NCBI GenBank assembly: GCA_021796275.1
Contig: JAJYOI010000005.1
Span: 1-61,837, forward strand
Length of the DNA: 61,837 nt
Source: Bacteroidota bacterium
GTDB lineage: Bacteria; Bacteroidota; Ignavibacteria; UBA10030; UBA8401
Reading direction: 5' to 3'
Both the position numbers and the translations under genes were made by a program. A model generated the notes under the pieces. It was not told the origin of the DNA. It made no database searches and saw nothing but the letters and a program-made list of their open reading frames with translations. Of this stretch, positions 3-24,209 are shown piece after piece; the first letter of the stretch is position 1, and each line of letters opens with the position of its first letter.

Positions 3-3000
3 GTGCAAATTCAATCACCGAAAGGAATTGCACGCGGGCTTCAGCGCGTCGGACGTTCAGGACATCTCATCAGCGCGCAAAGCAAAGGACGAATTTATCC
101 GACGCATCGCGAAGATTTATTGGAATCAGCAGTCGTCGCAAAAGAAATGAACGCGCATGCCATCGAACATACGCATGTGCCGATGAATTGCCTCGATGTC
201 GTTGCACAGCAAATCGTTGCTATGGTAAGCGTGGAAGAATGGAATGTTGATGAATTATTCGATCTTCTCCGGCAGTCGTATTGTTATCATACGCTCACAC
301 GAAATTTACTGACAAACGTTATTCAGATGCTTGCGGGCAGATACACGAATGCAGCATTCCGGGAATTGCGTGCGCGCATTTCGTGGGACAAGGTGAGAAA
401 CACGTTATCGGCGCTCCCCAGCTCCTCTCGTCTGGCAATCACTAACAGTGGTACGATTTCCGACCGCGGCTATTTCGGCGTTTATCTCGACGATAAAAAA
501 ACGAAAATCGGCGAAGTGGATGAAGAATTTATTTACGAAAGCCGTGCGGGCGACACATTCATTCTCGGCTCCAATGTCTGGAAAATGCTCGACATTGATA
601 CCAATAAAGTCATCGTTGCGCCGGCGCCGGGCCAGCCGGCTCGAATGCCGTTCTGGCGCGGCGAAGGAATTGGCAGAACATTTGAATTAGGATTGAAGAT
701 CGGAGAGTTTCTTTCAAACGCAGAAAAATCGTTGAAGCAGCAGAGCGATTTTCTTCCACGGCTGAAAGAACACTATCCTGTTGATTCATCTTCGGCATGG
801 AATCTTCACGAGTATTTGCGGGCACAATTGGAATCCTCCGGTGCGATTCCTTCGCACACAAAACTTATCGTCGAAGGATTCCGCGATGAGATCGGCGACC
901 CGCGCATTGTAGTGCATTCCTGTTTTGGGCGCAGTGTTAACGGTTTGCTCGGCCTCGCATTGCTGCATCAACTGAAAAAGCGGATAAACATTTCCGCCGG
1001 GGGTGGATACACCTCTGGCGTAGAAGTACAAATGCTGTACAATGACGACGGCATTCTTCTCCGCTGCTCGGATGCTGAACGCCTCCCACTCGATCTTTTT
1101 TCGGAATTAACTTCGGACACGGCGCAGGAAATTGTACTCGAAGAATTAATGATGTCGCCGCTTTTCGGCGGCTTGTTCAGACAAAACGCAGAACGTGCAA
1201 TGCTTCTGCCGAAATTATTTCCCGGAAAACGAACTCCACTCTTTCTGCAGCGCCTTCGCGCGGGAGATTTATTACAAATTGCCCGGCAGTATGATGATTT
1301 CCCCATCGTGATTGAAACCGTGCGCGAAGCGTTGAACGATGCTCTCGACTTCGAACATTTCAAAGAGATCGTTCAAAAAATAGAAAAAGGAGAAATTCAG
1401 ATCCATGAGGTACAAACTGAAACACCGTCACCTTTTGCTGCCGGAGTGTTGTTTGATTTTGCCGCTGTGTACATGTACGAATGGGACAAGCCGAAAAGCG
1501 GCGCGCAAGAAACACAGCAAGCACTGAACAGGGAGCTTCTCTCCGACATCGTTGATTTCACGACAGTGAAACCGATCCTGAGAAGCGATGCCGTCAGCAA
1601 AGTTATTGATCAACTGCAATATATTGCACCGACACGTGCGGCAAGAACTCCGGAAGAACTTCTCGAAATGTTAATCCGCATCGGGGAATTGTCGCGCGAA
1701 GAAATTGCCGAACGTTCAGCAGGAAAAACGTTAACGCACGCAGTGCAGCTTCTTGCCCAACATTCTGCGTGTTCAATTACGGTAAGCGGGATTGAATACC
1801 TGATCGCATCAGAAGAGATTCCATATTACCGATCGCTCGCGCATATTTCAGCAGAGTCTTTTAAGAATCTTCCTGATGAAATCGCGGCAGCCGAAATTCC
1901 CCGTAACGACGCGCTGCAATTCATCATCCTTCGCATGCTTCGCTCGCATGGACCGCTGACAGCAGAATTTATCGCGCATCGTTATGGCATTGATGAAGAC
2001 GAATGCCGCAAAATTCTTTCCTTGCTATCGGACAAAGAGCCGCTTCAGCACGGAAAATTTTCCGGCGGCGCAGTTCACGACGAGTGGTGTTACCGTCCGA
2101 ATTTAGATCGCATTCATCGCGCTTCCATTTCTTTGCTGCGCAGAGAAATCAAGCCGGCAACAATGGCGGACTTTACGAATTTCCTTCTTCAATGGCAGCA
2201 TCGTAGTTCTTCAGCGCAGGAAATCGGCGGCTCTGCAGCGATCGAAATTATCGAGCAGCTTCAAGCACTTCCGCTTTCCGCTGAATTATGGGAACCGGAA
2301 ATTCTCCGACAGCGCATCAAACGTTACGACGCGGCAGAAATTCGCGCACTTACTTCTCGCGGTGAAGCGCACTGCGTCGGCACAAATTCCGGAAAAATTC
2401 AATGGGTTCTTCGCGGAGAAGGCGCAGCTTTTTTACCTGAAGGAAATGCCGAAACCGTGGAATCACTTTCATCTTCATCGCAAAACGTTCACACTTATTT
2501 GAAAGAAAACGGCGCATCGTTCTTGTCGGATTTGAGAGACGGAATGAACATTTCTCTTGCGGCTCTGAACAAAGCAATTGCCGAGTTATTCTGGAATGGA
2601 TTGATCACGAACGATGTCTTTGATGAAATCATGCATGTTAAACGGTTTAGAACAACCGAGGAAAATACTTTCCCTGATGAACGAATTGTTTTGACAAACC
2701 CGCGGCACAATCCGCTGAAATTCAAAGCGATGAAATCCGTCCGCGCAGCGCTGAAAACCATGCCGGGATGGAACGGACGCTGGTCGCTGACACATTCACG
2801 GAATGCCTTCGGATCGAAACTTTCGCCGGGAGAAAAAATATCGCGCCGTGCAGAGCAGTTGCTTCAGCGGTACGGCATTGTGGCGCGCGAAATTGTTAAG
2901 CGCGAAGAAAATCTTGGGCCATGGCCATTGCTCGCTATGGAATTCCAAAAGATGGAATTGCGCGGAGAAATACGCCGTGGCTATTTTATCGAAGGATTGT

Positions 3001-3449
3001 CGGGAATGCAGTTTGCGCTGCCGGCAGCGGTTGAAACTCTGCGCAATATTCGAAGCGCAGCTTCCGAGCAAACTCCTGTCGTACTCAACGCATGCGACCC
3101 GGCAAATCCGTACGGTTCGGGAATCGAACTCAACGGAGCATCGTCCAATGCTCTGCGCATGATGCGAGTTCCGTCAAATTATCTTGTGGTGCACAAAGGC
3201 ATGCCGATTGTGTGGATTGAAAATTATGGAGCGCGCGTGTCAACCATTGCCGAAACTGATATTCAATTATTGCGGCTTTGTTTGACACAGTTTGTCGAAT
3301 ATCTCCGCTCTGCGCGTTCACACGAACATGCCGCTATCACTATTGAGCATTGGAATGATCTCCGCCCGACGGAAAATCCTGCAGCAGAAATTCTTCGCTC
3401 TATCGGATTCTACCGCGACCGCGTGCAGACAATGAGGTTGGAATTATAG
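3..3449 (+). CDS. lhr: Lhr-family ATP-dependent helicase (long form with C-terminal winged-helix/AlkZ-like region), 5'-truncated by the window edge
   Basis: Helicase motif VI 'LQRVGRSGH', Lhr signatures 'LDVVAQQIVA', 'GEVDEEFIYESRAGDTFILG', 'MPFWRGE', 'ETPSPFA' and C-terminal 'LLQRYGIVARE...GEIRRGYFIEGLSGMQFA...ACDPANPYG'; frame is open to the window start. Confidence 0.9.
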   Translation: MQIQSPKGIARGLQRVGRSGHLISAQSKGRIYPTHREDLLESAVVAKEMNAHAIEHTHVPMNCLDVVAQQIVAMVSVEEWNVDELFDLLRQSYCYHTLTRNLLTNVIQMLAGRYTNAAFRELRARISWDKVRNTLSALPSSSRLAITNSGTISDRGYFGVYLDDKKTKIGEVDEEFIYESRAGDTFILGSNVWKMLDIDTNKVIVAPAPGQPARMPFWRGEGIGRTFELGLKIGEFLSNAEKSLKQQSDFLPRLKEHYPVDSSSAWNLHEYLRAQLESSGAIPSHTKLIVEGFRDEIGDPRIVVHSCFGRSVNGLLGLALLHQLKKRINISAGGGYTSGVEVQMLYNDDGILLRCSDAERLPLDLFSELTSDTAQEIVLEELMMSPLFGGLFRQNAERAMLLPKLFPGKRTPLFLQRLRAGDLLQIARQYDDFPIVIETVREALNDALDFEHFKEIVQKIEKGEIQIHEVQTETPSPFAAGVLFDFAAVYMYEWDKPKSGAQETQQALNRELLSDIVDFTTVKPILRSDAVSKVIDQLQYIAPTRAARTPEELLEMLIRIGELSREEIAERSAGKTLTHAVQLLAQHSACSITVSGIEYLIASEEIPYYRSLAHISAESFKNLPDEIAAAEIPRNDALQFIILRMLRSHGPLTAEFIAHRYGIDEDECRKILSLLSDKEPLQHGKFSGGAVHDEWCYRPNLDRIHRASISLLRREIKPATMADFTNFLLQWQHRSSSAQEIGGSAAIEIIEQLQALPLSAELWEPEILRQRIKRYDAAEIRALTSRGEAHCVGTNSGKIQWVLRGEGAAFLPEGNAETVESLSSSSQNVHTYLKENGASFLSDLRDGMNISLAALNKAIAELFWNGLITNDVFDEIMHVKRFRTTEENTFPDERIVLTNPRHNPLKFKAMKSVRAALKTMPGWNGRWSLTHSRNAFGSKLSPGEKISRRAEQLLQRYGIVAREIVKREENLGPWPLLAMEFQKMELRGEIRRGYFIEGLSGMQFALPAAVETLRNIRSAASEQTPVVLNACDPANPYGSGIELNGASSNALRMMRVPSNYLVVHKGMPIVWIENYGARVSTIAETDIQLLRLCLTQFVEYLRSARSHEHAAITIEHWNDLRPTENPAAEILRSIGFYRDRVQTMRLEL
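993..1022. repeat. 30-bp double-hairpin palindromic element, in frame in lhr (SAGGGYTSGV)
   Basis: tccgcc-ggg-ggtgga + tacacc-tct-ggcgta (two imperfect 6-3-6 palindromes); removing it gives the continuous sequence KKRINI-EVQMLYNDDG. Confidence 0.7.
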
Positions 3450-3450
3450 C

Positions 3451-3930
3451 ATGCTTCCCCATTATATCATTGACGGCTACAATCTTCTTCACGAAATTCT
3501 ACCGCTGAAAAAACTTCTCTCACATGATGCAGTCGCAGCAAGAGAGCAACTTATTGACATGATTGCACGGCTTACGATGAAAAGAAAACTCCGCTGCACG
3601 ATCGTATTCGACGGTGCTAAACCGCATGCTGGAAACTTTCCGGCAAGCAATACGCCGATTCATGTCGTGCATGCTTTCCCTGTTTCTGCCGACGAGAAAA
3701 TTCGGGAGATGATTGAAAAATCGAAAAGCCGCACATCGCTCGTCATTGTTTCTTCCGATCACGAAATTCTGAATTTTGCACGCGTTTGTTCATGCACAAC
3801 GCACACATCAAAATATTTTAAGCAGATGTTATTTGAAGAGCCGGATCACGGCGAAGAAAAGGAACAGGTGAGTCTTTCAAAAGCGCAGGTAAAGGAATGG
3901 CTGAAGATTTTTGGAGAAGAGAAACAGTAA
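3451..3930 (+). CDS. NYN domain (YacP/Rae1-like) PIN-fold ribonuclease
   Basis: 'IIDGYNL', 'IVFDG', 'SADEKI', 'IVSSD' acidic motifs; starts 1 nt after the lhr stop. Confidence 0.85.
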   Translation: MLPHYIIDGYNLLHEILPLKKLLSHDAVAAREQLIDMIARLTMKRKLRCTIVFDGAKPHAGNFPASNTPIHVVHAFPVSADEKIREMIEKSKSRTSLVIVSSDHEILNFARVCSCTTHTSKYFKQMLFEEPDHGEEKEQVSLSKAQVKEWLKIFGEEKQ

Positions 3931-3933
3931 AGG

Positions 3934-5097
3934 CTATGCGCTCGCAACTGTGGGCGATTCTTTTACGCGCGAAGATTCCATCATTGCAATAAACTTCGCA
4001 AAAAGATAATCGCTGTCGTGGGGACCGGGGGAAGCTTCGGGATGATATTGAACGCAGAACAGCGGAAGTGTTTTATGCTGAAAACCTTCAACTGTGTGAT
4101 CGTTAAGATTGATGTGCGTCAACTCCACTTTTTCGGCGTCCATCGTTTTCCACTCGACGGCAAAACCGTGATTCTGCGATGTAATTTCAATCTCATTCGT
4201 CTTCAAATTTTTCACCGGATGGTTGGCTCCGCGATGCCCGAATTTCAATTTGTACGTCTTCCCGCCAAGCGCTAACGCTAACAATTGATGACCAAGGCAA
4301 ATACCAAAAATCGGCTTCACGCCGACTAGTTTTTTTAGATTCTGAATTGCATATTTCACCGCATCCGGATCACCGGGACCATTCGAAAGAAAAATTCCAT
4401 CAGGATTCATTGCAAGAACTTGTTCGGCAGAATATGACGCCGGCACAACAGTAAGGTCACATCCATAGCTGACAAGCCGGCGTAAAATATTTCTCTTCAC
4501 ACCATAATCAAATACCACAACATTGAAACGCCGCCCATTTCGCTTCGCATCAACTTTTTGAGTCGCCAGCGCATACGTCGTACGATCAACATCATTCCAG
4601 CGGTACGGCTTCTCACACGTGACATGTTTTGCTAAATCCTGCCCCGTCATTCCTGGCGACGCCTGCGCTTTTGCAACGAGGCTTGTATCGTCTAAATCCG
4701 TTGTCGAAAGGACTCCGCGCAATGCGCCCTGTGTGCGAATCATTTTCGTCAACATGCGCGTATCAATGCCCTGAAGAGCGATGACATTATTGCGTTTCAA
4801 CCATGCGGCAAGACTTTCGTTCGCACGCCAATTGCTGAAGAAATCAAAATACTCGCGCACGAGAAATCCTGAAACCTGCGGCTTACCGGATTCAATATCT
4901 TCAAGATTAACACCGTAATTGCCAATCATCGGATACGTCATCGTGACAATCTGTCCGGCGTACGACGGGTCGGTGAGAATTTCCTGATAGCCGGTCATGC
5001 TCGTGTTGAACACAACTTCGCCGGCAATTTCTCCTTCGGCGCCGAAATTCTCTCCGGTAAAGACTATTCCATTCTCTAAAGCAAGCTTTGCGATCAT
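3934..5097 (-). CDS. carA: Carbamoyl-phosphate synthase small subunit
   Basis: 'GEVVFNTSMTGYQEILTDPSY', 'LSNGPGDP', 'GICLGHQL', 'QYHPEASPGPHD'. Confidence 0.98.
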   Translation of the reverse strand: MIAKLALENGIVFTGENFGAEGEIAGEVVFNTSMTGYQEILTDPSYAGQIVTMTYPMIGNYGVNLEDIESGKPQVSGFLVREYFDFFSNWRANESLAAWLKRNNVIALQGIDTRMLTKMIRTQGALRGVLSTTDLDDTSLVAKAQASPGMTGQDLAKHVTCEKPYRWNDVDRTTYALATQKVDAKRNGRRFNVVVFDYGVKRNILRRLVSYGCDLTVVPASYSAEQVLAMNPDGIFLSNGPGDPDAVKYAIQNLKKLVGVKPIFGICLGHQLLALALGGKTYKLKFGHRGANHPVKNLKTNEIEITSQNHGFAVEWKTMDAEKVELTHINLNDHTVEGFQHKTLPLFCVQYHPEASPGPHDSDYLFAKFIAMMESSRVKESPTVASA

Positions 5098-5132
5098 TTC
5101 TGTTTCATTTTCAAAATTATTTTTACGGAAGA

Positions 5133-5161
5133 AAAATACGAAAATGGCGATGGAGAGTCAA
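5133..5161 (-). promoter_or_regulatory. sigma70-type promoter of carA
   Basis: Minus strand TTGACT-17 bp-TATTTT; the -35 box lies 10 bp from the left end of the inserted element. Confidence 0.55.
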
Positions 5162-5171
5162 CGAACATTCC

Positions 5172-5210
5172 GGTGCTGGCTCAATTTACTCTTAAGTGGC
5201 TCAATTTCAA
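5172..5210 (+). repeat. Left terminal inverted repeat
   Basis: ggtgctggctcaatttactcttaagtggctcaatttcaa; contains TGGCTCAATTT twice, 20 bp apart; preceded by aacattcc (5164-5171). Confidence 0.8.
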
Positions 5211-5335
5211 TTTTTCTAAGTGAAAAAGAACGATAAAAAGTGAAAACGGGCACGGTTAATGAGGTTGCAATTGAAAATGGGAAATGTGATATTACTGCAC
5301 CCCATACTCGATAAACATTTGAAAGAGGTGCTCGC

Positions 5336-6886
5336 ATGTCGAAAGTTAATCTTGATGCTTTAGTACCACGAGAAGATTTTGATGCAATAGGAAATAATAG
5401 TCCGGGTGTTGTTGGAGATACAATTTCGATTTCCGATTTAACAAGTGGATATGTTTATCCATTTATTAGAAAACCCGATTTTCAACGAGAAACAAGCGAA
5501 TGGGATGCTAAGCAAATTTGTGATTTTTTAGAAAGTTTTCTTAATGGAGATTTAATTCCTGCCATCATATTATGGAGAAGTGCGTCTGGAAATTATTTTG
5601 TTATTGATGGTGCCCATAGACTTGGTGTCTTAGTTGCTTGGATTTTTAATGATTATGGGGATAAAGATATTTCTCAAAAATTTTATGACCATGATATTTC
5701 TTCAGATGAAATGTCTATTGCTGATAAAGCACGGAAAATGGTAAATCATCGAATTGGATCATTCCAAGATATTAAAAACTCCCCAAATGAAACAGCGCCT
5801 AATCCGGCATATTTGCAAAGAGCTAAAAATATGGGAGCCTATAAACTACGCGTTCAATGGGTAGAGGGTAATGCTGAAAAGGCAGAAAGTTCATTTTTTA
5901 AGATTAATCAGCAAGGCGTACCACTTAATAAAACAGAAATTAAACTTTTGGAATCCAGAAAAAAGGCTAATTGCATAGCGGCGAGAGCAATTTGGAAGGC
6001 AGGAAAGGGACATAAATTTTGGGTTGATTTTTCCGCAGAAAATCAAAGTGAAATTCAACGGCTTGCCAGCGAGATTAACAAAATATTATTTACTCCTCCA
6101 TTAAAATCGCCGGTTAAAAATCTACATTTACCAATCGCGGGAAGAATATCTGTGTCACTCCCTCTTATTTTTGATTTCATAAACATTGTTAATAATGTAC
6201 CATCCGATTTTAATAAAAAATTATTAGATGATGATAATGGAAATCAGACCATACAATATTTACGAGAAGTTAGAAAAATTGCATGGCGTATTAATAGCGT
6301 TCATCCTTCCTCGCTTGGATTAGATTCCATAGTTTATTTTTACAATACAAAGGGACAGCACAAGGCAACATCTTTTAGAGCAGTCATTGTTTGGGTTCTG
6401 GAGATGCAAAAAAATAATTCGTTCAAGGAGTTTACTAAAATTCGAGCGAATTTTGAAGAACTTCTCTTGAAGTATAATGATATGATTCAAGATATAGGAA
6501 GAAAGCTAAGACAATCAATTGATAGTTATTATGAAATAAAAGATTTCTATACAGAATGTATAAAATCTCTATCAAGAGGAAATAGTATTGATGCCGCGAT
6601 AAAAGAAGTAATTAGAACTACAAAGTTTAGTTATCTCAAAATGGAAATTCACTCAAGCGATTTCCACAACGAGGTCACAAGTGCAGTTATTAAAAGAGAA
6701 CGTAAATCTTCGGCTTTTATTAGAGAAGCATTAGAAACACGTATAAGATGTAAAATTTGTGGTGCAAGGTTACATGAAAATGCCATGCAGGTTGATCACA
6801 TTATCCGTGAAGAAGATGGGGGCTTGGGGAATGAAGAGAACGCTCAACTTACTCATCCGTTTTGCAATTCTACAATAAAAAATTAA
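5336..6886 (+). CDS. DUF262 (GmrS/ParB-Srx-like) plus C-terminal HNH endonuclease; GmrSD-like putative restriction nuclease
   Basis: DUF262 motifs 'PDFQRE..W', 'IPAIILW', 'VIDGAHRL', 'FFKINQQGVPL'; HNH 'CKICG...VDHII..EDGG.G..ENAQLTHPFCN'. Confidence 0.8.
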   Translation: MSKVNLDALVPREDFDAIGNNSPGVVGDTISISDLTSGYVYPFIRKPDFQRETSEWDAKQICDFLESFLNGDLIPAIILWRSASGNYFVIDGAHRLGVLVAWIFNDYGDKDISQKFYDHDISSDEMSIADKARKMVNHRIGSFQDIKNSPNETAPNPAYLQRAKNMGAYKLRVQWVEGNAEKAESSFFKINQQGVPLNKTEIKLLESRKKANCIAARAIWKAGKGHKFWVDFSAENQSEIQRLASEINKILFTPPLKSPVKNLHLPIAGRISVSLPLIFDFINIVNNVPSDFNKKLLDDDNGNQTIQYLREVRKIAWRINSVHPSSLGLDSIVYFYNTKGQHKATSFRAVIVWVLEMQKNNSFKEFTKIRANFEELLLKYNDMIQDIGRKLRQSIDSYYEIKDFYTECIKSLSRGNSIDAAIKEVIRTTKFSYLKMEIHSSDFHNEVTSAVIKRERKSSAFIREALETRIRCKICGARLHENAMQVDHIIREEDGGLGNEENAQLTHPFCNSTIKN

Positions 6887-7069
6887 AATTTTTCAAAGAG
6901 TCTCAAACATTTAGAAGCCGCGTTAGCATTACACTTTTTTCATTACAACTTTATGCGTATCCATGAAACAATTCGTGTTACCCCCGCAATGGAAGCGGGT
7001 ATTAGCAAACACCTTGTTTCATGGGAAGATTTCTTGGAATGGAGCGTTGAGAGCCGAATAGCGGCATAG
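6887..7069 (+). pseudogene. C-terminal fragment of an IS1-family transposase
   Basis: Translates NFSKSLKHLEAALALHFFHYNFMRIHETIRVTPAMEAGISKHLVSWEDFLEWSVESRIAA*, matching the 'FSK..ENH..A.ALHF..YNF.RIH.TLRVTPAM.AG' tail of IS1-family transposases; no start codon or DDE core. Confidence 0.8.
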
Positions 7070-7130
7070 TTTGTGCCAATATTCAATTTTTTAATTTGCT
7101 ATTCAAATATTATAGTACTAAATTTATAAT

Positions 7131-7754
7131 ATGTTAATGGAAATTAAAAAGGAAATTTCATTTCCACTGGATGTAGAAAAATCGCTTGCGATTGCCCAAA
7201 ACATCTTAAACAGATTAGAGGACAAAGAAGCGAATTTCATGTACTTATTGAAGTTGATATTTTTTGCAGATAGATACCACTTCAGAAAATATTTGCGCCC
7301 TTCGACAAGCGATAAATATTTTGCAATGAAAAGGGGCGCGGTAGCATCATATTTATATGACATTTTTAAGAATGGCACAAACGACGAAAGAATAAAAAAA
7401 ATTGGTGATTACACCGTTCAGCTCACCGGAGAACCGCAGTATCAAGAAAAATTATCGCAATCCGATATAGAGGCCATAGACTTTTCTTTCAATAATTTCG
7501 GGAAATATTCTGACATGGTTTTATCTGACATTTGTCATGCTTATCCCGAATGGAAGAAATTTGAAAAAGAATTAAATTCAAGAGATGGAAGAAAAAGCAT
7601 TCTAATGGATATGAGAGATTTTTTGGAAGATGCCGATCCAGAAGACAATATCTTTAGAAAAAATAAAATGTCCGATCCGTTTGAACCAATCCCAAAAGAA
7701 GAAAAAGAAATATTAGAAACACAATTGGTTGAAATTCACTCGCAAATCGCATGA
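7131..7754 (+). CDS. Panacea domain (DUF4065/SocA/GepA) antitoxin
   Basis: 'LLKLIFFADRYHFRKYLRPSTSDKYFAMKRGAVAS.LYD', 'LSQSDIEAID', 'LSDICHAYPEWKK' follow the DUF4065 pattern; start may be 7137. Confidence 0.8.
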   Translation: MLMEIKKEISFPLDVEKSLAIAQNILNRLEDKEANFMYLLKLIFFADRYHFRKYLRPSTSDKYFAMKRGAVASYLYDIFKNGTNDERIKKIGDYTVQLTGEPQYQEKLSQSDIEAIDFSFNNFGKYSDMVLSDICHAYPEWKKFEKELNSRDGRKSILMDMRDFLEDADPEDNIFRKNKMSDPFEPIPKEEKEILETQLVEIHSQIA

Positions 7755-8179: not shown

Positions 8180-8198
8180 AAAACTACAAATCCTTAGT

Positions 8199-8237
8199 TT
8201 CAAACTGAGCCACTCGGCATCAAATTGAGCAAGCACC
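8199..8237 (-). repeat. Right terminal inverted repeat
   Basis: Reverse complement ggtgcttgctcaatttgatgccgagtggctcagtttgaa, 30/39 identical to the left IR; followed by aacatccc (8238-8245). Confidence 0.8.
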
Positions 8238-8280
8238 AACATCCCCGCAATGAAAAATCTTCACCATTTCTCTGCTTGAA

Positions 8281-10161: not shown

Positions 10162-10170
10162 TGATAATTG

Positions 10171-15073: not shown

Positions 15074-15100
15074 TAGACTCCACCTCACAGGTGGAGTCTA
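15074..15100 (-). terminator. Perfect 12-bp hairpin, probable terminator or processing site
   Basis: tagactccacct-cac-aggtggagtcta, 9 nt after the stop at 15110; only a weak U tract. Confidence 0.55.
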
Positions 15101-15109
15101 TCTGATCAT

Positions 15110-16144: not shown

Positions 16145-16231
16145 TTTCCTATCCTCCTTTCAAAGAGGTAAAACTTGTTTCTCGTACTGCTACAACACTT
16201 CACTGTTCTTTTTCATTCCCGAATGTATGCG

Positions 16232-16996
16232 CTACAACGTGCGCACATACTCAACTTTCAACGTTCTATTTCCAATTGTGACAATATCCTGATTCTTTGC
16301 CAAATTCTTCAAATCGAAGCCAAGCGTAAATCCGTTTCCCCATGACCAGCGGATTCCGGCATTTAAATAGCCTTTCCCTTTTCCTACTGCCCGGGCACCG
16401 GTGTCGTTAAATCCAAAGTCATATTCACACAGAAATGAAATATCAGAACCAAACGATTTTTCTGCGCCAACGAACACATCCGGGTTTTTGTTGCCGTCAT
16501 CCCGTTCCATACTCAGGTTTACGCCGCCATGCAGACTTAAGTTTCCAAAGAGCGAATAATTTTTGCTCGCAACTGCATAGATTCCGCGAGACTTGATCGT
16601 GAATCTATTTGTACTGTCAATGTAGCTTTCTTTTCCCTGCGAATCAAATCCGAGCGCAATCGCCGGCATGGCAACAGTCTCATCGAACAGCCGGAATTTG
16701 ATCATCACACCGGGAAGCCGCTGCCAATTCACTTGATCGGAGCCGATAATTCCTGTGCCGCCGTACGAAATTCCGAAATTCAATCGGTCAAGCGCGCCAG
16801 CGGAAAGCGCAATCATCAAACCGCCCTGCTGAAACATGTCAATATCCATTCCGAATGAACCGCGTTTCAGCAATCCGGCAGTCGGCGTATCAATGACCCA
16901 ACGAGGTTCAACATTCGCATTGTCACCGGCAGAAATCTGTCCAAAGAGCGAAGAATTCAAGAGCATCACCAACATTATCGTTATGACTTTTTTCAC
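16232..16996 (-). CDS. YjbH-like outer-membrane beta-barrel protein
   Basis: Signal peptide, 'VIDTPTAGLL..GSF', alternating beta strands, 'LNAGIRWSW..GFTLGFDLKNL'; GTG start with aaggag SD. Confidence 0.7.
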   Translation of the reverse strand: MKKVITIMLVMLLNSSLFGQISAGDNANVEPRWVIDTPTAGLLKRGSFGMDIDMFQQGGLMIALSAGALDRLNFGISYGGTGIIGSDQVNWQRLPGVMIKFRLFDETVAMPAIALGFDSQGKESYIDSTNRFTIKSRGIYAVASKNYSLFGNLSLHGGVNLSMERDDGNKNPDVFVGAEKSFGSDISFLCEYDFGFNDTGARAVGKGKGYLNAGIRWSWGNGFTLGFDLKNLAKNQDIVTIGNRTLKVEYVRTL

Positions 16997-17014
16997 TTGA
17001 TTCTCCTTGTACTG

Positions 17015-17041
17015 TTAGACTAATTCAGTTTAACGAAGTTT
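17015..17041 (-). promoter_or_regulatory. Candidate sigmaE (ECF)-type promoter of the YjbH-like gene
   Basis: Minus strand AAACTT-16 bp-TCTAA, close to the GAACTT-N16-TCTAA consensus. Confidence 0.45.
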
Positions 17042-17081
17042 ACCATTGCAGTCAATTAAATTCGATTAATTTTCCAACTTT

Positions 17082-18533
17082 TCAGGCTTTTTTCCATGAA
17101 GTGCCGTCTTTGGTATCTTCTAAAACAACGCCGAGCGCTTTTAAGCGGTCACGGATTTTGTCGGAAAGCAGCCAAAATTTATTTTCGCGCGCTTCTTTCC
17201 TTGCGGCGAGAAGCAATTCTACCAACTGTGGTTCAATCATTCCATCAGTTTGCAATTGGGACGAAGCTGCTTTTTCACCAAACAAGCCAAGAATGTTGAC
17301 GCCATAATCGGTGAAAAATGTCTCGATCTGATGCAGCGATTCAAGTGAAATCCCATTTGGCTGTGCAAGAAGATCATTCACTGCGCGTGAAAGATCGAAG
17401 AGCGCCGCAATTGCCTGCGGAGTATTAAAGTCGTCGTCCATCGCTTCGGTGAATCGTTTACGATATTCTGCAAGGTCAAAAAGGGTTCCTTTACCGTTCT
17501 TTCCTTTTTTGATTTCTACACGAACACGTTGAACGGTATTCTGCAATTTCTCCAGCCCTTTTCCTGCCGCTTCAATTGCCTGCTCGCTGAAGTCTAATGT
17601 GCTTCGGTAATGGCTTTGCAGGATGAAAAATCGGATCACCAGCGGATCGAATTTCTTGAATGCGTCTTTCAGCGTAACAAAATTGCCAAGCGATTTTCCC
17701 ATTTTCTGGCCATTCACCGTCACCATATTATTGTGAAGCCAGTATTTTACAAACGGCTTGCCGGTTGAGCATTCGCTTTGTGCAATTTCACATTCGTGAT
17801 GCGGAAATTGATTCTCAATTCCGCCGCCGTGAATATCGAAGCTTTCCCCCAAATACTTCATTGACATGGACGAGCATTCAAGATGCCAGCCGGGATAGCC
17901 GCTGCCCCACGGGCTTGGCCACTGCATAATATGTTCCGGTTCCGCTTTTTTCCACAATGCAAAATCAGCGGGATGTCTTTTTTCCGACTTTACTTCAATA
18001 CGCGCTCCCGATTCCATTTCTTCGACATTGCGCCCGGAAAGTTTTCCGTACTCCGAAAACTTGTGGACATCAAAATAGACAGAACTATTCACTTCGTACG
18101 CGTAGCCGCCCGCAAGCAATTTTTTCACCATTTCGATCTGTTCAATGATGTGTCCGGTTGCGTGTGGAGAAATATCGGGACGTTGAATACCGAGCGCATC
18201 CATATCTTCGAAATAACTTCGCGTGTATAATTCCACTACTTGCATCGGATGAACACGGTCAAGTTTCGATTGCTTTTCAATCTTGTCTTCGCCCTGATCG
18301 GCATCGTCGGTGAGATGACCGACATCGGTAATGTTCTGCACGTACAAAACTTTGTAGCCGAGAAACCGAAGATAGCGAACAATGACATCGAACGACACAT
18401 AACTTTTCGCGTGACCAATATGTGAATCGCCGTACACTGTTGGTCCGCAAACATACATCCCAACGCGCCCCTCATGAATCGGTTTGAATGTTTCTTTTTG
18501 TCGTGCGAGTGTATTGTAGATTTGTAGGGGCAT
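17082..18533 (-). CDS. cysS: Cysteine--tRNA ligase
   Basis: 'YVCGPTVY..SHIGHA', 'DFALWK', 'PGWHLECS', 'FPHHECE', 'KMGKSLGN'. Confidence 0.98.
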   Translation of the reverse strand: MPLQIYNTLARQKETFKPIHEGRVGMYVCGPTVYGDSHIGHAKSYVSFDVIVRYLRFLGYKVLYVQNITDVGHLTDDADQGEDKIEKQSKLDRVHPMQVVELYTRSYFEDMDALGIQRPDISPHATGHIIEQIEMVKKLLAGGYAYEVNSSVYFDVHKFSEYGKLSGRNVEEMESGARIEVKSEKRHPADFALWKKAEPEHIMQWPSPWGSGYPGWHLECSSMSMKYLGESFDIHGGGIENQFPHHECEIAQSECSTGKPFVKYWLHNNMVTVNGQKMGKSLGNFVTLKDAFKKFDPLVIRFFILQSHYRSTLDFSEQAIEAAGKGLEKLQNTVQRVRVEIKKGKNGKGTLFDLAEYRKRFTEAMDDDFNTPQAIAALFDLSRAVNDLLAQPNGISLESLHQIETFFTDYGVNILGLFGEKAASSQLQTDGMIEPQLVELLLAARKEARENKFWLLSDKIRDRLKALGVVLEDTKDGTSWKKA

Positions 18534-18535
18534 AG

Positions 18536-20290
18536 CTATTTCATTCCCATCAGTTCACGTGCACCTTTCAATCCGGCTTCAGTCACTTCAGCACCGCTCA
18601 TCAATTTTGCAATTTCATGGACGCGTTCTTCAACGGAAAGTTTATGAAGCCGGGTCGTTGTCCGCTTTCCGTTTTCGATTTTCTCAACGGCAAAATGCGT
18701 GTCCGCAAGGCCGGCAATCTGCGGCAAATGCGTAATGGCGATGATCTGCGGAATTACCGCAAGCTTCTTCAAGCTCATGCCGACAGCTTGCCCGATTCTG
18801 CCGCTGACGCCGGTATCAATTTCATCGAAGATCATCAACGGCACGCGGTCGGATTGTGCGAGCGTTGATTTCAGCGCGAGCATTACGCGCGAAACTTCAC
18901 CGCCCGAGGCGACTTTTGCCAGCGGCTTCACATCTTCGCCGGCATTCGTTGAGAGATAAAATTCTACATTATCAACGCCGTGCAAGGTCGCCGCGAAATA
19001 TTCATTGCCGATCTTCAGCGCATCGTCGGGAATCTCGCCATCATTCTTCGCCCGCTCGATTTTCTTTTGCTCAATGTGCACTGAAAATTTTCCATTGGTA
19101 ATGCCAAGTTCGGCAAGCGAAGCGAGGATTGATTTTTCAATTTTTTTCACAGCTTCAACTCGCTTCGCCGAGAGCTTCTGCGCACGCTCTGAACATACAC
19201 TGCGCTGTTTTTGAATTGCAGCGGCAATCTTTGACAACTCGCTCTCAAAATTTTCAGCTAAAGAAAATTCTTCTCCAATGTTCTTCCGGTGTTCAATCAC
19301 GGTACCGAGCGAGCCGCCGTATTTCTTCTTCAATAAAATCAATTTTCCGAGGCGGTCACGCAGCATTTCCAAACGCTCGGGATTGAATTCAATTTTCTCC
19401 TTGTACTCGTGAAGAAATTTCGACAACTCCTCTACAATAATTTCCGCCGATTTTACTTCTCCGACAGAATCCGAAAACGCTGTATCAATTCCATTTAACA
19501 TTTCAAGTTGTTTTGATGCATGACCGAGCTGGTCGTGAAGTGAATTTTCACCGTCGTACATCATACCATAGAGCTGCGATGTCAACTCAAAAAGCTTCTC
19601 CGCATTTTCAAGCTTCTTCAACTCCGATTCGATTTGTTCTTCCTCATTTTCCTGCGGATTGACGGCGTCAATTTCGGTCATCTGAAATTCAAACAGACTT
19701 TTTTTCTCTTTAAGCTGTTGTTCTTTCTCGTGCAATTCACGCTTCGTGGCGCACAACTGCAAAAGTTCGCGGTACACCTTTTGATATTCCTCTAACAGCG
19801 GTCCGAGATTCCCGAAGTCGTCAAGAAAATCCACATGTGTTTCTGCGCGAAGAAGCGACTGGTGATCATGCTGACCATGAAGATCAATGAGCGCGTCGCC
19901 GATTTCCTTCAAGAGCGAAAGCGGCGCAGGCGTATCGTTGACAAAACACCGGCTTTGACCTTTCGCGGAAATTTCACGCCGGACAATCAGCTCGTCAGAC
20001 ACATCGTAGTCATTCTGTTTCAACAGCGAGGCAATCTTCTCAGCCATAGGCTGATCAGCCTTCGGCTGAGGCGCGCCGGAAACAACGAACACTCCTTCAA
20101 CAACGGCTTTCTCTTCTCCCTTGCGGACAACATCCGTGCTTGCACGTTCACCCAACAAAAGGCTGAGCGCATCAATCAAAATAGATTTTCCTGCGCCCGT
20201 TTCGCCCGTGATGATATTCAGTCCGCGCTCAAATTCGACAGAAATTTCTTCGATGAGCGCATAATTTTTGATGAAAAGAGACTTCAGCAT
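18536..20290 (-). CDS. recN: DNA repair protein RecN
   Basis: Walker A 'TGETGAGKS', 'HGQHDHQSL', 'VASGGEVSR', 'IFDEIDTGVSG', 'ITHLPQIA'. Confidence 0.97.
   Translation of the reverse strand: MLKSLFIKNYALIEEISVEFERGLNIITGETGAGKSILIDALSLLLGERASTDVVRKGEEKAVVEGVFVVSGAPQPKADQPMAEKIASLLKQNDYDVSDELIVRREISAKGQSRCFVNDTPAPLSLLKEIGDALIDLHGQHDHQSLLRAETHVDFLDDFGNLGPLLEEYQKVYRELLQLCATKRELHEKEQQLKEKKSLFEFQMTEIDAVNPQENEEEQIESELKKLENAEKLFELTSQLYGMMYDGENSLHDQLGHASKQLEMLNGIDTAFSDSVGEVKSAEIIVEELSKFLHEYKEKIEFNPERLEMLRDRLGKLILLKKKYGGSLGTVIEHRKNIGEEFSLAENFESELSKIAAAIQKQRSVCSERAQKLSAKRVEAVKKIEKSILASLAELGITNGKFSVHIEQKKIERAKNDGEIPDDALKIGNEYFAATLHGVDNVEFYLSTNAGEDVKPLAKVASGGEVSRVMLALKSTLAQSDRVPLMIFDEIDTGVSGRIGQAVGMSLKKLAVIPQIIAITHLPQIAGLADTHFAVEKIENGKRTTTRLHKLSVEERVHEIAKLMSGAEVTEAGLKGARELMGMK
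20040..20069. repeat. 30-bp double-hairpin palindromic element, in frame in recN (QPKADQPMAE)
   Basis: tcagcc-ata-ggctga + tcagcc-ttc-ggctga, two perfect 6-3-6 palindromes. Confidence 0.8.
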
Positions 20291-20433
20291 GGATGCAAAT
20301 TACACGGATTTTTAGAGAGATTCAAGGAAAACTGAGTATTGGCTTGACCTTCCAGAGGTAATTTTCTACTTTGGACAAGTTAAATCTTTGATTACTGCTC
20401 TCGATTTAATGCTTTCACGGAGAGGAACATATC

Positions 20434-20907
20434 ATGGTATTCATAATCATTTTCGCTTATGCAATCCTGTTTGGAGGTGTCACTTCTCTTGCTGCTAAGT
20501 CTCGCAACAGAGATCCTTTAACTTGGTTTTGGATTGGATTTGTCTTTGGAATTTTCGGCTTGATTGCAGTCTTGGTTATGCAAGATGGCAAAGAAGATGA
20601 TCAGTGGCCAACACAGCATTATTCAACAACATCTACAAGTCATAAACCACTGACAAAAAAATGCCCTGACTGCGCAGAGGAAATTAAATATGAAGCCAAA
20701 GTTTGCCACTTTTGTGGAAAACGATTTGATGAACAACAAAAAACTGTAACGGAGCCTATTCCAATGAAATCCATGACTAACAAAGAACCATCGTCCAATA
20801 AATCAGTAAGACTTAAAACCACTCGTTGTCCAAAATGCTACACAATGAATTATCGCGATGCCATGTTTTGTTCGGCTTGCGGCGCTTCAATCAATAACGA
20901 CGATTAA
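20434..20907 (+). CDS. Membrane protein with two zinc-ribbon domains
   Basis: Two hydrophobic N-terminal helices; 'CPDCAEEIKYEAKVCHFCG' and 'CPKCYTMNYRDAMFCSACG'; own promoter TTGACC-17-TACTTT (20344-20372) and gagg SD. Confidence 0.75.
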   Translation: MVFIIIFAYAILFGGVTSLAAKSRNRDPLTWFWIGFVFGIFGLIAVLVMQDGKEDDQWPTQHYSTTSTSHKPLTKKCPDCAEEIKYEAKVCHFCGKRFDEQQKTVTEPIPMKSMTNKEPSSNKSVRLKTTRCPKCYTMNYRDAMFCSACGASINNDD

Positions 20908-20954
20908 AAATTGAGCAACCGGATTGCTGAAGCCATATCACCCAAGGAGAATAT

Positions 20955-22442
20955 TTACAACACCGCCATCACTGACACACCGACAATCGCGCACACCCAA
21001 TTCACAATATCATTGTTAATCCAGCGAACGCCGCGAACCAGCGAAGTTTCTTTTTCACAATGCCGTTTTTTTTCTGTCACTTTCCCGCACATGACACAGC
21101 GATACTGCGCTTGAATTGTTGCGCCAAGAAAACTATCGGCGAGCGATCCTGCAATTCCCGAAAGGACGACGAACACAACGAGCCGCACATCAAGACCATA
21201 CCAAAAACTTCCGCTCAACGCAATCAGAAACGCACCGCATGCACCGCCGACAATTCCGGCAAGCGACACGCCGCCGCTTGTTCCGGTTTCAACACGCTTC
21301 ATTGTGAGAATTGAACGCGGTGAGGCGTGCGCCAGCACACCGATTTCCGTTCCCCATGTATCGGCAGTCACTGCGGCAAGCGATGCAAGATACAACGGAT
21401 ACCAAAACTCATTTGATGGAGCAACGTACCAGCACAGCATCAACATTCCTGTAACGCCGCCGTTCGCGGCAACTTGTCCGGCATCGCGCGTATCGGATTT
21501 TTCAAACAACAAGTCAAATGCAGATTTTCGTTTCTTTCCAAATTTTGAAAGCAGGCTCGACGCAACAAAAAAAGTGAGAATTGGGACTGTCCATTGCCAG
21601 CCGCCGATGCCGAAAATAATTGTCGCCAGCAAAAATGTCGCTGCCGAACCGCTCGGCTTCAGAAAATGAAATCGAAGCGAAACAACGGCAATCGTCGCGG
21701 CAAGAAAAATGCCCAGCAATAATTGTCCGGCATGATGATGCGGCAACGGTGTCAGTAAAAAATGGAGGATGAACGCCGCGGCAAGCGGAACGGTGAGATT
21801 ATCAAATCCTTTCGACGAAATCGCTTCCCACATCGTGGCAAACGACGCGACTGCAAACCCGGCAAGAACAAGAAACCCGATATTTGAAATTGCAGTCAAC
21901 GGATTGAAACGGAGCGCAAGCACTACGACGAGAAATGTTGCAACAAACATTGTGACGGATCCTTCGAGCGATTTTTTATCGCTCGTCAGAAAATAATTGT
22001 GAGGCGATGAAAGATTTCCGCCGACAATCGCAGCGGCGGCATCGCTGATTGCGAGCACGAGAATGGAAATCGAAATGATTGCCGGAGTTTCGTTCCAAAA
22101 CAAGAGAACAAGGATAAGAAATGCCAGCGGATAATAGACCGTGCCGTACGAGCGGCGATTTGTTCCATGCATTCCTTTCAACAAATCGAATCGTTCCGCC
22201 GCAAAATTGACAATAATAAAAATGAGAGCAAGAAGAATTGCCGGAATGCCTGAATTGAACAATTGAGGTGCAAAATAGATCAAAACGCCAGTGAGAATAT
22301 GAACGAGCTTTCGGGTTACTTCTGGAGATCTGTTGAATTTTTTTCTGACCAATTCAGCGGCAGCAATGAACAGCGCAATACCCGAAAGAAGAACAGCGAA
22401 GAGCATCCACTCAGAAAAACCGGGCGGGAAAAATAATTTCAT
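20955..22442 (-). CDS. Phytol/dolichol kinase-like domain fused to DUF92 (TMEM19) membrane protein
   Basis: 'TRKLVHILTG', 'SDAAAAIVG', 'KKSLEGS', 'GFDNLTVP'; DUF92 'RDAGQVAANGG', 'ADTWGTEIG', 'GTSGGVS', 'DSFLGATIQ'. Confidence 0.85.
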   Translation of the reverse strand: MKLFFPPGFSEWMLFAVLLSGIALFIAAAELVRKKFNRSPEVTRKLVHILTGVLIYFAPQLFNSGIPAILLALIFIIVNFAAERFDLLKGMHGTNRRSYGTVYYPLAFLILVLLFWNETPAIISISILVLAISDAAAAIVGGNLSSPHNYFLTSDKKSLEGSVTMFVATFLVVVLALRFNPLTAISNIGFLVLAGFAVASFATMWEAISSKGFDNLTVPLAAAFILHFLLTPLPHHHAGQLLLGIFLAATIAVVSLRFHFLKPSGSAATFLLATIIFGIGGWQWTVPILTFFVASSLLSKFGKKRKSAFDLLFEKSDTRDAGQVAANGGVTGMLMLCWYVAPSNEFWYPLYLASLAAVTADTWGTEIGVLAHASPRSILTMKRVETGTSGGVSLAGIVGGACGAFLIALSGSFWYGLDVRLVVFVVLSGIAGSLADSFLGATIQAQYRCVMCGKVTEKKRHCEKETSLVRGVRWINNDIVNWVCAIVGVSVMAVL

Positions 22443-22448
22443 CTGTGG

Positions 22449-23489
22449 TCAAGCCGGGATAGAAGTCGAACGCACCGAACGCGAGCCGGCAATTTCAAAC
22501 AGCAAGATATCCATCACGACATGCGGATCGCCGGAAGAAGTTTTCAATTGTTCGTCGGCGCGCGTGAGTGTCAGCAGTGCGTCTTCAACAGCGCTGCGTG
22601 AATAATGTTTCAAATGTTCGAGATATTCTTTGAGGAAATAGGGGTGAACGCCCACTTTTTTTGCCATTTCTGCCGGTATCACACGTTCTGCATTCAGTTG
22701 ATGCAGGCGCCATAAAATGCCAAAGTGACGGGCAAGCATCGCTACCATGCCCGCCGGCGCTTCGCCGACATCTATCATGCGTGCACAAATGCTCAACGCT
22801 TTCGAAAGATTTTTTTCTCCGACGGCGCGAGTCAGCTCGAATATTGAAAACTCCCGCGACATACCGACAATAGATTGGACGTCGCTTGTTTCAATCTTAG
22901 CCTTCGAGCCTACAGCGATGAACAGTTTTTCAAGCTCATTATTCAATTCACGCAATGACGTACCAACATACGTGAGAAGTATTTCTGCCGCTTCGGGCGC
23001 AATGTGTGTCCCTATTGCTGCGGCGCGCCTTTGTACCCATGATGGAATTTCGTATTCGCGCAGCGGCACCACTTCGCCGCCGATTGCGTGCTGTTTCAAA
23101 TAAGCATAGACCTTCTTGCGCATATCAACTTTTGCGGCAGCAAGAAACAAGCTTGTGGAAGGCGAAGGGTGTTCGATGTACGACAAGAACGGATCGAGTT
23201 CCGTCGTGCGTTCAAAATCGCGCACGATAACAACGCGCCGCTCTCCCATCATCGGAAACGACGACGCAAGGGAAACGATATCTTTCCCTTCAATATCGTT
23301 GCCATGGATAATATCAAGATTGAATTGGCGCGAAGCGGAATCGACGGCGTTGGCAACAAGCGCATCCGCAACTTCGTCAATCAGAAAATCTTCCTGTCCA
23401 TAGAAAAAATACAGCGGCGCAAATTTGTGATTCCTGATATCATCAAGAATCATGTCGAGAGGAATTTTTTCTTTCGAGGTCTTTGCCAT
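22449..23489 (-). CDS. holA: DNA polymerase III delta subunit
   Basis: 'YFFYGQEDFLID', 'FNLDI.HG', 'SFPMMGERRVVIV', 'NELEKL'; ATG at 23489 preferred over the TTG at 23510. Confidence 0.92.
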   Translation of the reverse strand: MAKTSKEKIPLDMILDDIRNHKFAPLYFFYGQEDFLIDEVADALVANAVDSASRQFNLDIIHGNDIEGKDIVSLASSFPMMGERRVVIVRDFERTTELDPFLSYIEHPSPSTSLFLAAAKVDMRKKVYAYLKQHAIGGEVVPLREYEIPSWVQRRAAAIGTHIAPEAAEILLTYVGTSLRELNNELEKLFIAVGSKAKIETSDVQSIVGMSREFSIFELTRAVGEKNLSKALSICARMIDVGEAPAGMVAMLARHFGILWRLHQLNAERVIPAEMAKKVGVHPYFLKEYLEHLKHYSRSAVEDALLTLTRADEQLKTSSGDPHVVMDILLFEIAGSRSVRSTSIPA

Positions 23490-23510
23490 AGAGCTAACGC
23501 CAGACGGCAA

Positions 23511-24209
23511 TCACTTTACGTACACTTTTTTCATCACCACCGGCGTTAAAGGATTGTCGCGTTGGTCGCGGGGAACCGCAACGATCTTATCCACGACATC
23601 CATGCCGTCAACAACTTTTCCGAACACGGTATATTGTCCGTCAAGAAAATGCGCCGGGGCAACGGTGATGTAGAATTGGCTTCCGTTCGAGCGGCGTTCG
23701 GGGTTCACCGCATCACCCTGACGCGCGGCAGCAACAACGCCGCGGTCATGCGGCACACCAATCTCTGCTTCAATCGTGTAACCGGGACCGCCCAAGCCGT
23801 CGTTCGAGCGGTCGTTGTCTTTCGAATTCGGATCGCCGCCCTGAATCATGAACCCGGGAATGACGCGGTGAAATGTTGTACCGTTATAAAATCCTTCCCG
23901 TGCAAGCTTTCGGAAATTCGCGGAATGTTTCGGCGCTTTGTCATCGAATAATTGAATGGTGATGGTGCCCATCGTCGTTTCAATGACAACAAAGCCTTTT
24001 TCTTTTTCCGCAGTCTTTGACTCGGTTTTCGATTTATTGTCTGTTTTCGCCACAGCTTTTTTAGCCTTCAATGTTTTTGATTTCTTTTGCGCCGGTTTGT
24101 CTGCCGTCTGTTTGGCAGAAGGCGCATCCGCCTTTGGCGGAGTTAACTGTGAATTTGCCGCCGTCGTCAGAATCAGCAGTACACACAGCACGGCAGAAAT
24201 ATATTTCAT
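23511..24209 (-). CDS. Exported cyclophilin-type peptidyl-prolyl isomerase
   Basis: 'FYNGTTFHRVIPGFMIQGGDP', 'GSQFYI', 'LDGQYTVFGKVVDGMDVVDKI'; signal peptide and Lys-rich linker. Confidence 0.93.
   Translation of the reverse strand: MKYISAVLCVLLILTTAANSQLTPPKADAPSAKQTADKPAQKKSKTLKAKKAVAKTDNKSKTESKTAEKEKGFVVIETTMGTITIQLFDDKAPKHSANFRKLAREGFYNGTTFHRVIPGFMIQGGDPNSKDNDRSNDGLGGPGYTIEAEIGVPHDRGVVAAARQGDAVNPERRSNGSQFYITVAPAHFLDGQYTVFGKVVDGMDVVDKIVAVPRDQRDNPLTPVVMKKVYVK
24112..24141. repeat. 30-bp double-hairpin element, partly degenerate, in frame in the cyclophilin gene (PPKADAPSAK)
   Basis: Perfect tccgcc-ttt-ggcgga (24127-24141) next to the degenerate unit ttggca-gaa-ggcgca. Confidence 0.55.

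Follow-up and report, generated by a model that had tools for sequence, protein, structure and literature searches.

The stretch of DNA analysed here (the window, 61,837 nucleotides) is contig C60 of a draft genome, G000, of a Bacteroidota bacterium from the class Ignavibacteria (GenBank assembly GCA_021796275.1, contig JAJYOI010000005.1). The draft has 3.30 Mb in 150 contigs and 46.6% G+C. A first reading of the window (the original prediction) had pointed to a 30-nt element, made of two abutting 15-nt palindromes with arms of six nucleotides around a loop of three (6-3-6), that interrupts three genes in frame. The genes and the elements in them are as follows.

3..3449, plus strand: Lhr-type helicase, an open reading frame (ORF) with its translation, 5' end cut by the window start
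993..1022: element in lhr, a decayed doublet with one arm mismatch in each half
18536..20290, minus strand: recN, an ORF with homologues that their sources call DNA repair protein RecN
20040..20069: element in recN, an intact doublet with both 6-3-6 palindromes perfect (0 + 0 arm mismatches)
23511..24209, minus strand: secreted cyclophilin-type peptidyl-prolyl isomerase, an ORF whose family name is that of the original prediction
24112..24141: element in the cyclophilin gene, a half-decayed doublet in the linker after the signal peptide

The Lhr protein matches the solved Lhr helicases PDB 7lhl (E 3e-66) and 5v9x (E 1e-62), and the cyclophilin-type protein has orthologues in all five relatives searched. 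Each 15-nt half of the three elements was checked as a 6-3-6 palindrome and its arm mismatches were counted. The coordinates and sequences first given for the tandem palindromes are correct and the recN copy is perfect, but the lhr copy has its mismatch in each half and the cyclophilin copy retains only one sound half: 24127-24141 is a perfect hairpin, while 24112-24126 has three mismatches in six arm positions. Read on the coding strand, the cyclophilin copy is TCCGCC-AAA-GGCGGA and then TGCGCC-TTC-tGCcaA, with the inner arm TGCGCC intact and the outer (last) arm decayed. The second half of the lhr copy (TACACC/GGCGTA) departs from the consensus that had been proposed for all three sites, but a weight matrix built from other copies in the genome recovers all of them as family members, with scores of 19.1 bits for lhr, 47.6 for recN and 26.0 for cyclophilin; no site in three simulated genomes reaches 18 bits. 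Scanning the window with the same matrix found no copies beyond these. All three window sites are members of one repeat family, and the recN copy alone is intact.

The translated products are those already predicted. The lhr copy encodes SAGGGYTSGV in element frame 0, and the recN and cyclophilin copies, both on the minus strand, encode QPKADQPMAE and PPKADAPSAK. Lhr has an element frame of its own, and RecN and cyclophilin share element frame 2.

The family is large. Perfect 6-3-6 palindromes in the genome have TCAGCC (74), TCCGCC (52), TGCGCC (12), TCAGAC (11) and TGAGCC (11) as prominent arms, and abutting perfect pairs number 38, compared with 0, 1, 1, 0 and 2 in five dinucleotide-preserving shuffles. 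A looser rule gives 87 doublets. The weight matrix, trained on 76 doublets from contigs other than the window's, finds 112 sites above 12 bits in the genome and a mean of 0.67 in three first-order Markov simulations of it. The genome-wide counts are about 100-fold above shuffled or simulated sequence, and copies lie in many unrelated genes as well as in intergenic DNA, as would be expected of a mobile element.

The anatomy of the element is well defined. It is sharply bounded at 30 nt, with the information content at background 2-4 nt past either end. Its unit is a 15-nt hairpin, T-S-N-G-C-C / R-R-A / G-G-C-N-S-A, and the doublet consists of two such units placed head to head, inverted and with zero spacer, so that its two strands are nearly alike. 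The first loop is purine-rich (typically AAA, GAA or AGA, with A at position 9 in 66 of 76 copies) and the second is pyrimidine-rich (TTT, TCT or TTC, with T at position 22 in 66 of 76). Watson-Crick pairing inside the hairpins is 93.6%, compared with only 70.5% if the element is folded as one 30-nt hairpin, and 63 of 85 distinct copies adopt two hairpins when DNA energy parameters are applied. The variable pairs (2/14 and 3/13) are 94.5% paired, compared with 59.9% when partners are shuffled, which extends to the whole genome the observation from the window that arm variants co-vary and that structure is conserved over sequence. Among 160 perfect family units, 115 directly abut a partner hairpin with at least five pairs. 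The 49 perfect units that stand alone are mostly doublets with a decayed or indel-bearing partner, and they obey the same loop-orientation rule. Units start with TC or TG and end with GA or CA; no GTAG or CGTC tetranucleotide is present in the element profile, and no cargo-bearing parent element was seen in G000.

The history of the copies can be followed in five relatives, of which G001 and G002 belong to the same genus and the other three (to G005) to other genera. For both Lhr and RecN the element is present in G001 and is missing, as a gap of exactly ten residues, from G002 and the three other genera. In G002, recN reads ...atcttt^ggtgca... (^ marking the insertion point), with exactly 30 nt absent and CTTT^GGTG as the empty site, and lhr reads ...aacatt^gaagtg..., again with a 30-nt gap and with CATT^GAAG as the empty site; for lhr the exact 30-nt/10-aa gap is seen in two other genera as well. 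Removing the element from lhr, a step in the original prediction that was said to leave a clean protein sequence, yields exactly the sequence of the orthologues. The Lhr insert is also a 10-residue gap against both PDB 7lhl and 5v9x, and of 32 aligned RecN homologues, taken from a large collection of proteins, 29 are without the ten residues. The AlphaFold model of RecN (mean predicted local distance difference test score, pLDDT, 78.9) places the insert in loop 72-80, which joins strand 61-69 to helix 81-92 and has pLDDT below 50. The alignment and structure checks proposed at the outset both agree with insertion, and the element is absent also from the cyclophilin linker of four of the five relatives. 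In the loop that holds the RecN insert, a metagenomic RecN (P0005, 92% identical) has different extra residues (LTGSST and MGHS..LG). Close RecN homologues bear source names that put the organism with Ignavibacteria-like Bacteroidota, and a search for loci related to recN gave distant relatives only, at 45% identity or less.

The cyclophilin linker has a more complex history. G002-G005 are without the element there, and in G001 a doublet with other arms (TCAGCC and TGAACT) sits 9 nt further on; the aligned linkers suggest two separate insertions into one tolerant region. The linker, which is lysine-rich, also varies in length between close relatives. In lhr, the first hairpin of the G001 copy is still perfect, so the G000 copy has decayed since the split of G000 and G001.

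Fourteen further G000 doublets on other contigs were examined, and orthologous flanks were recovered for nine. G002 has a clean empty site at six of these nine loci, the other three being in non-aligning regions. In G001, four of the further loci are filled (shared intact) and two hold a single 15-nt unit; these singlets are orthologous to the doublets at G000:C138:6626 and C132:8365, where G002 is empty. They are best read as deletions between the repeated arms, which would also explain the 'solo' hairpins. Since the element is present in G000 and G001 and the sites are empty in G002, most insertions date to the time between the split of G002 and that of G001, a dating that rests on these two sister genomes. 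The empty and filled sites, compared as aligned sequence, show that copies entered as clean 30-nt blocks without target duplication, of which there is none at any of eight empty/filled site pairs. In the G001 orthologue of the doublet at G000:C138:11826, one hairpin departs from that of G000 by two double changes that compensate each other within pairs (one from T-A to C-G, the other from C-G to T-A) and by one disruptive change; the compensatory changes fit no explanation so far.

The element has a target preference. T and then a pyrimidine precede it in 50 of 86 copies, compared with a background of 13.8%, and a purine and then A follow it in 40 of 86. The junction reads C^A, or T^G when taken from the opposite strand, in 45 of 86 copies, and TT^GA occurs 16 times where 1.2 are expected. 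Oriented on T^G, the consensus target is C-N-T-T^G-A-N-G, and the empty sites of lhr and recN fit it. The junction preference is equal in intergenic (18/34) and genic (23/42) copies and shows no bias to the coding strand, and is thus a property of insertion rather than of protein selection. Insertion into hairpin loops was considered as a general rule and rejected: the flanks are complementary at 2.79 of 10 positions, compared with 2.91 in shuffled sequence (86 copies), and contiguous runs are shorter than expected. Three cases of hairpin-loop insertion are striking, namely the loop of a repetitive extragenic palindromic (REP) sequence, the T- and D-loops of tRNA, and the apex of a 140-nt repeat (see below).

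Placement of the copies was assessed with the authors' own gene calls, a heuristic that scores dicodons on ORFs (2657 ORFs, 90.7% coding). Among the 87 doublets, 42 lie inside ORFs, 11 overlap an ORF end and 34 are intergenic, totals that are approximate, most of all near N-termini, because the gene calls are crude. In the 11 copies at ORF ends the TGA/TCA of the element acts as the stop codon. Copy density is about 111 per Mb in intergenic DNA and 18 per Mb in coding DNA, a difference of about six times. The intergenic copies comprise 3 convergent, 7 divergent and 18 tandem cases, roughly in proportion to intergenic length, and they favour neither gene 3' ends nor convergent gaps.

Inside genes the frame is far from even. 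The in-gene copies are in frames 2, 1 and 0 in 32, 5 and 5 cases, and interior copies (at least 40 residues from the N-terminus and at least 15 from the C-terminus) in 19, 0 and 4. Because the element is symmetric, frame 2 gives the peptide [Q/P]PKAD[Q/P/E]PxA[E/Q] in either orientation. Frame-0 copies all have the stop-free TCCGCC-type arms, and TCCGCC-arm copies encode SAxGGSAxGG. The five frame-1 copies are all within 30 residues of the called start and may lie upstream of the true start. Of the 39 other host ORFs, 35 have Pfam domains of unrelated families; the hosts include RNase III, RlmN, D-Tyr-tRNA deacylase, ribosomal protein L17, polyprenyl synthase, peptidases, glycosyltransferases and transporters, as well as phosphoglycerate kinase, where the copy is at codon 0 of the called ORF and is probably upstream of the true start. 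No enrichment of DNA-repair genes was seen among these 39.

Outside G000 the family is patchy. Relatives were sampled and are not independent of one another, and place lists in the other genomes are partial. The strict doublet pattern has matches in 27 of 61 relatives, and a reversed control pattern has none; G000 has the most (38) and G001 comes next (18); G002 has 5. An even sample of the phylum had the family in 13 of 27 members of the order; other orders of the class gave 1 of 35 genomes and other classes 1 of 189. The single positive genome among those 189, G081, from another class of the same phylum, carries 14 doublets, several of them perfect 30-nt palindromes, and viral contigs in IMG/VR have 12 loci (L194-L205), the majority set in AT-rich sequence and bearing the usual TT(Y)^(R)AA flanks. 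The G081 and viral copies are a hint of horizontal spread, and the patchiness fits a history of bursts, loss and some horizontal spread. Identical doublet pairs in other genomes proved to be tandem duplications or modules of GIY-YIG and tRNA genes, except for one pair that flanks unrelated small genes. In that pair (L134, G053:C143:37577-40105) the identical doublets are 2.5 kb apart and enclose genes for a DUF2283 protein, a Uma2-family endonuclease and a nucleotidyltransferase/HepT-like pair. On contig C9 of G033 (L137:1135-2119) an intergenic 140-nt tandem repeat has seven copies at 96% identity, and in each copy a longer, imperfect inverted repeat has a family doublet at its apex.

Candidate mobilising enzymes include the Y1 transposases (PF01797), of which G000 has four genes. 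The gene on C66 (159 aa; G000:C66:31850-32500, L101:1150-2100) resembles a REP-associated tyrosine transposase (RAYT), with 82.7 bits against the NCBIfam model NF047646 (cut-off 80). Hairpins of the GTAGCCGC type, GTAG-headed and REP-like (GTAGCCGCGACC...GGTCGCGG), flank it in a cluster that holds 7 of the 10 GTAGCCGCRACC sites in the genome, which makes this a small REP/RAYT locus of the classical kind. At 114 nt upstream of the RAYT-like gene, a 30-nt doublet is inserted in the loop of a GTAG-headed hairpin. The other three genes are IS200-like, and all pass the NF033573 cut-off:

L098, C118:41505-41975: IS200-like Y1 gene
L099, C144:19523-19978: IS200-like Y1 gene
L100, C38:37884-38330: IS200-like Y1 gene

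Each of these has its own GC-rich hairpin pair, for example ACCCCATGCT/AGCATGGGGT or CCATCCCGAC/GTCGGGATGG, suggesting that several separate small hairpin families live in one genome. Over the 61 relatives, 10 of the 11 without a PF01797 match are also without a doublet, and 26 of the 50 with a match have doublets. Homologues of the individual genes were traced in 28 genomes, 15 element-bearing and 13 element-free, with the following result.

C118-type Y1 (at least 50% identity): 8 of 15 element-bearing and 8 of 13 element-free genomes; best match in G001 34%, no match in G002 at E <= 1e-10
C66 RAYT-type (at least 46% identity): 4 of 15 and 2 of 13; no close orthologue in G001, one present in G002
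C38-type Y1 (at least 70% identity): 1 of 15 and 2 of 13; absent from G001 and G002
C144-type Y1 (E <= 1e-30): 9 of 15 and 4 of 13; 79% in G001, absent from G002

The C144 type is also present in G081 and is the sole type compatible with the distribution of the element within the genus.

An unexpected physical link is with small stand-alone GIY-YIG genes of about 90-125 aa. Every inspected locus of this kind in G000 adjoins tRNA genes and tRNA fragments with palindromic inserts in D-, anticodon- or T-loops, and the same arrangement is present in two other families of the order:

C47:1-420 (L217): GIY-YIG/tRNA locus in G000, family doublet at C47:127
C87:1-2200 (L211): GIY-YIG/tRNA locus in G000, family doublet at C87:374 and single unit at C87:1444
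C128:4800-5600 (L212): GIY-YIG/tRNA locus in G000
C138:29360-29840 (L213): GIY-YIG/tRNA locus in G000
G053:C101 (L135): same arrangement in another family
G034:C248 (L136): same arrangement in another family

At these loci the 5' fragment of a tRNA-Ser has a family doublet in its D-loop, and the matching 3' fragment has one in its T-loop. Elsewhere a single unit replaces a D-loop, and another hairpin sits in a T-loop. Palindromes of 16-17 nt replace anticodon arms, and an anticodon loop holds a 22-nt mini-doublet of family-like design (TCCCAAAGGGA followed by TTCCTTTGGAA). Contigs C47 and C87 are apparently joined through one small GIY-YIG gene. In two other genomes, identical doublet pairs flank small GIY-YIG genes.

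These results together lead to the reading, held with good confidence, of a 30-bp mobile DNA element, lineage-restricted and non-autonomous, of which the three sites are copies. The original proposal of a mobile palindrome that colonises tolerant loops of proteins is supported by the copy counts, the empty orthologous sites, the loop position and the many unrelated hosts. To judge from the distribution of copies, insertion would be roughly random, with selection then purging the harmful ones. The survivors in genes would be those that keep the frame, have no stops and add a hydrophilic loop, and they would lie in loops, linkers and termini. After insertion, copies decay by point mutation, and some would lose 15 nt between the repeated arms to leave single hairpins. 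The weakest step concerns the enzyme, which would act in trans and recognise the small hairpins where DNA is single-stranded or extruded. The tentative first guess, less likely right than wrong, is a Y1 HUH transposase (IS200/IS605 or RAYT kind), with a GIY-YIG nuclease as the second.

Several results weigh against the mobile-element reading, most of them on the side of the enzyme. The search of G000 identified no mobilising enzyme linked to the element. The original prediction had proposed to look for a REP-associated transposase flanked by such hairpins; Y1 and RAYT genes are indeed present in the genome, but doublet-type hairpins flank none of the four, which have other hairpins instead. 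Homologues of the C118, C66 and C38 genes do not track the element over the 28 genomes, and the trend of the C144 type with it is weak. Doublet counts over the 61 relatives correlate with Y1 counts (rho 0.53) and with GIY-YIG counts (0.62), but neither correlation is specific, because the Y1 and GIY-YIG counts are themselves correlated (0.65), and both may reflect only a genome's overall load of mobile DNA. Within a doublet, the two units have independent arm types (same type in 35 cases, 34.1 expected), which simple copying of whole doublets from a few masters does not predict. There is no evident current activity, the further copies compared in G001 being four intact and two singlets. The contigs of one DNA run (X1) that cover the region include no element-free form of recN, although contigs do not reveal rare variants: a 93%-alike contig crosses the recN copy without a gap. 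In the same run, loose ends at 20040 resemble other copies of the repeat, and one contig skips 24003-24141 in the cyclophilin linker, a skip that ends exactly at the element boundary. The crudeness of the gene calls, already mentioned, belongs with these points.

The GIY-YIG loci raise the possibility, unlikely on balance, that the palindromes belong to the small stand-alone GIY-YIG genes beside tRNAs and that the copies across the genome are off-target events. The nuclease might cut loop-like TTGA/TTCGAA sequences, with the doublet marking or blocking the site, or it might drive the spread of the doublet. The constant company of palindrome-bearing tRNA fragments in G000, G053 and G034 speaks for this, as does the correlation with doublet counts; all 11 relatives with at least 10 GIY-YIG matches carry doublets, compared with 4 of the 26 that have four or fewer. 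However, only about 3-4 of the 112 copies are in tRNA fragments, and one T-loop copy (C130:26376) is on a contig without a GIY-YIG match. Doublets and GIY-YIG genes in other genomes are mostly far apart as far as the partial place lists go, and the correlation is confounded with the Y1 counts. The tRNA fragments may also be neutral sinks, since the T-loop (TTC^GAA) and the D-loop of tRNA-Ser (TTG^AA) contain the preferred site. GIY-YIG enzymes are known as hydrolytic nucleases and not as strand-transfer enzymes. A related reading, rather unlikely too, makes the 15-nt hairpin the mobile unit, with one arm templating the other, and ties it to the GIY-YIG/tRNA-fragment cassettes rather than to Y1. 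It would explain both the always-complementary arms and the independent assortment of arm types in the two hairpins and, if true, would describe a new minimal selfish DNA whose length, symmetry and open frames permit life in proteins in either orientation.

Two other explanations do without selfish copying. The host could be keeping the hairpin for a function, as has been proposed for REP sequences: it might bind a DNA-structuring protein, stabilise mRNA or act as a terminator, and selection would account for its spread. The compensatory arm variants, which maintain the hairpin, the age and wide occurrence of the family in the order, and the stop codon that the element supplies in 11 of 87 copies would suit such a function, which is nevertheless very unlikely: the intergenic copies have no 3'-end or convergent preference (3/7/18), orthologous copies decay freely between G000 and G001, 34 of the 61 relatives have no match, and about half of the copies are inside unrelated genes. 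Less credible still is that no DNA element is involved, and that the repeat is a selected peptide linker or a motif of the uptake or recognition type that arose by point mutation. The peptide xPKADxPxAx does recur in many proteins, but 34 of 87 copies are intergenic, the frame-0 copies give a different peptide from the same DNA, and orthologues differ by clean 30-nt blocks and not by substitutions. Uptake sequences of other bacteria are also found in genes, with a typical copy number far above the 100 or so seen here.

The 30-bp element is among the smallest repeats shown through orthologues to insert in frame into many housekeeping proteins, and its copies form a natural map of sites that tolerate ten extra residues in the host proteins. 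For annotation, it accounts for recurrent 10-residue indels, and for contig breaks in metagenome assemblies of the group. No description of the family was found in a literature search by words, junction strings and peptides, the scope of which left aside subscription journals and supplementary files; the strings and peptides matched primers only.

Among known systems, classical miniature inverted-repeat transposable elements have terminal inverted repeats and target duplication, and the absence of duplication at the eight site pairs sets the element apart from them. IS200/IS605 elements and their miniature derivatives have hairpins at both ends, make no target duplication and insert beside a short preferred sequence. 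The present element likewise inserts without duplication at a short specific sequence, but it has no cargo or sequence between its hairpins and both flanks take part in the target preference; no TnpA gene with matching hairpins was found among the IS200-like genes of G000. Mitochondrial double-hairpin elements, GC clusters and palindromic repeats are tiny spreading hairpin repeats that are sometimes in coding regions. They differ in being organellar, of other sequence and mostly longer, and no relationship is implied.

A close likeness is to REP sequences and REPINs (inverted REP doublets), which RAYT Y1 transposases mobilise and which are also short GC-rich inverted hairpin pairs with many dispersed, patchy copies and compensatory changes; they lie mainly outside genes, close to 3' ends. 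The units here differ in being 15 nt long, with zero spacer and no GTAG/CGTC head, and about half of the copies are in or at the edge of genes, without a 3'-end preference. The RAYT-like gene of G000 is moreover flanked by a different, GTAG-type REP, and its orthologues do not track the element. Intragenic REP dimers of the GTAG/CGTC type have been described in Opitutus terrae, Rickettsia conorii and others, with spacers of 1-2 bp; they are translated into 20-30 residues, often in DNA repair genes, and stop codons are provided by the ends of REPs (Di Nocera et al. 2013, PMC3733652). The main text of that paper makes no mention of Ignavibacteria. The element described here encodes ten residues and has no tag. 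Rickettsia palindromic elements (RPEs), the analogy drawn in the original prediction, are about 150 bp long and are found in frame in many unrelated genes with a tolerated, conserved peptide (PMC10969869). The analogy is apt in that both insert in frame into many unrelated genes; the present element differs in being 30 bp long, strand-symmetric and from Ignavibacteria-like Bacteroidota, the families RPE-1 to RPE-10 having lengths of about 100-150 bp. It extends the REP/RPE type to an Ignavibacteria-like lineage, and traits that neither type is described as having are the lack of a spacer and of a GTAG/CGTC tag, the near identity of its strands, and a defined insertion site without duplication. 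The element is best seen as a very small variant of the REPIN-like and RPE-like palindromic elements.

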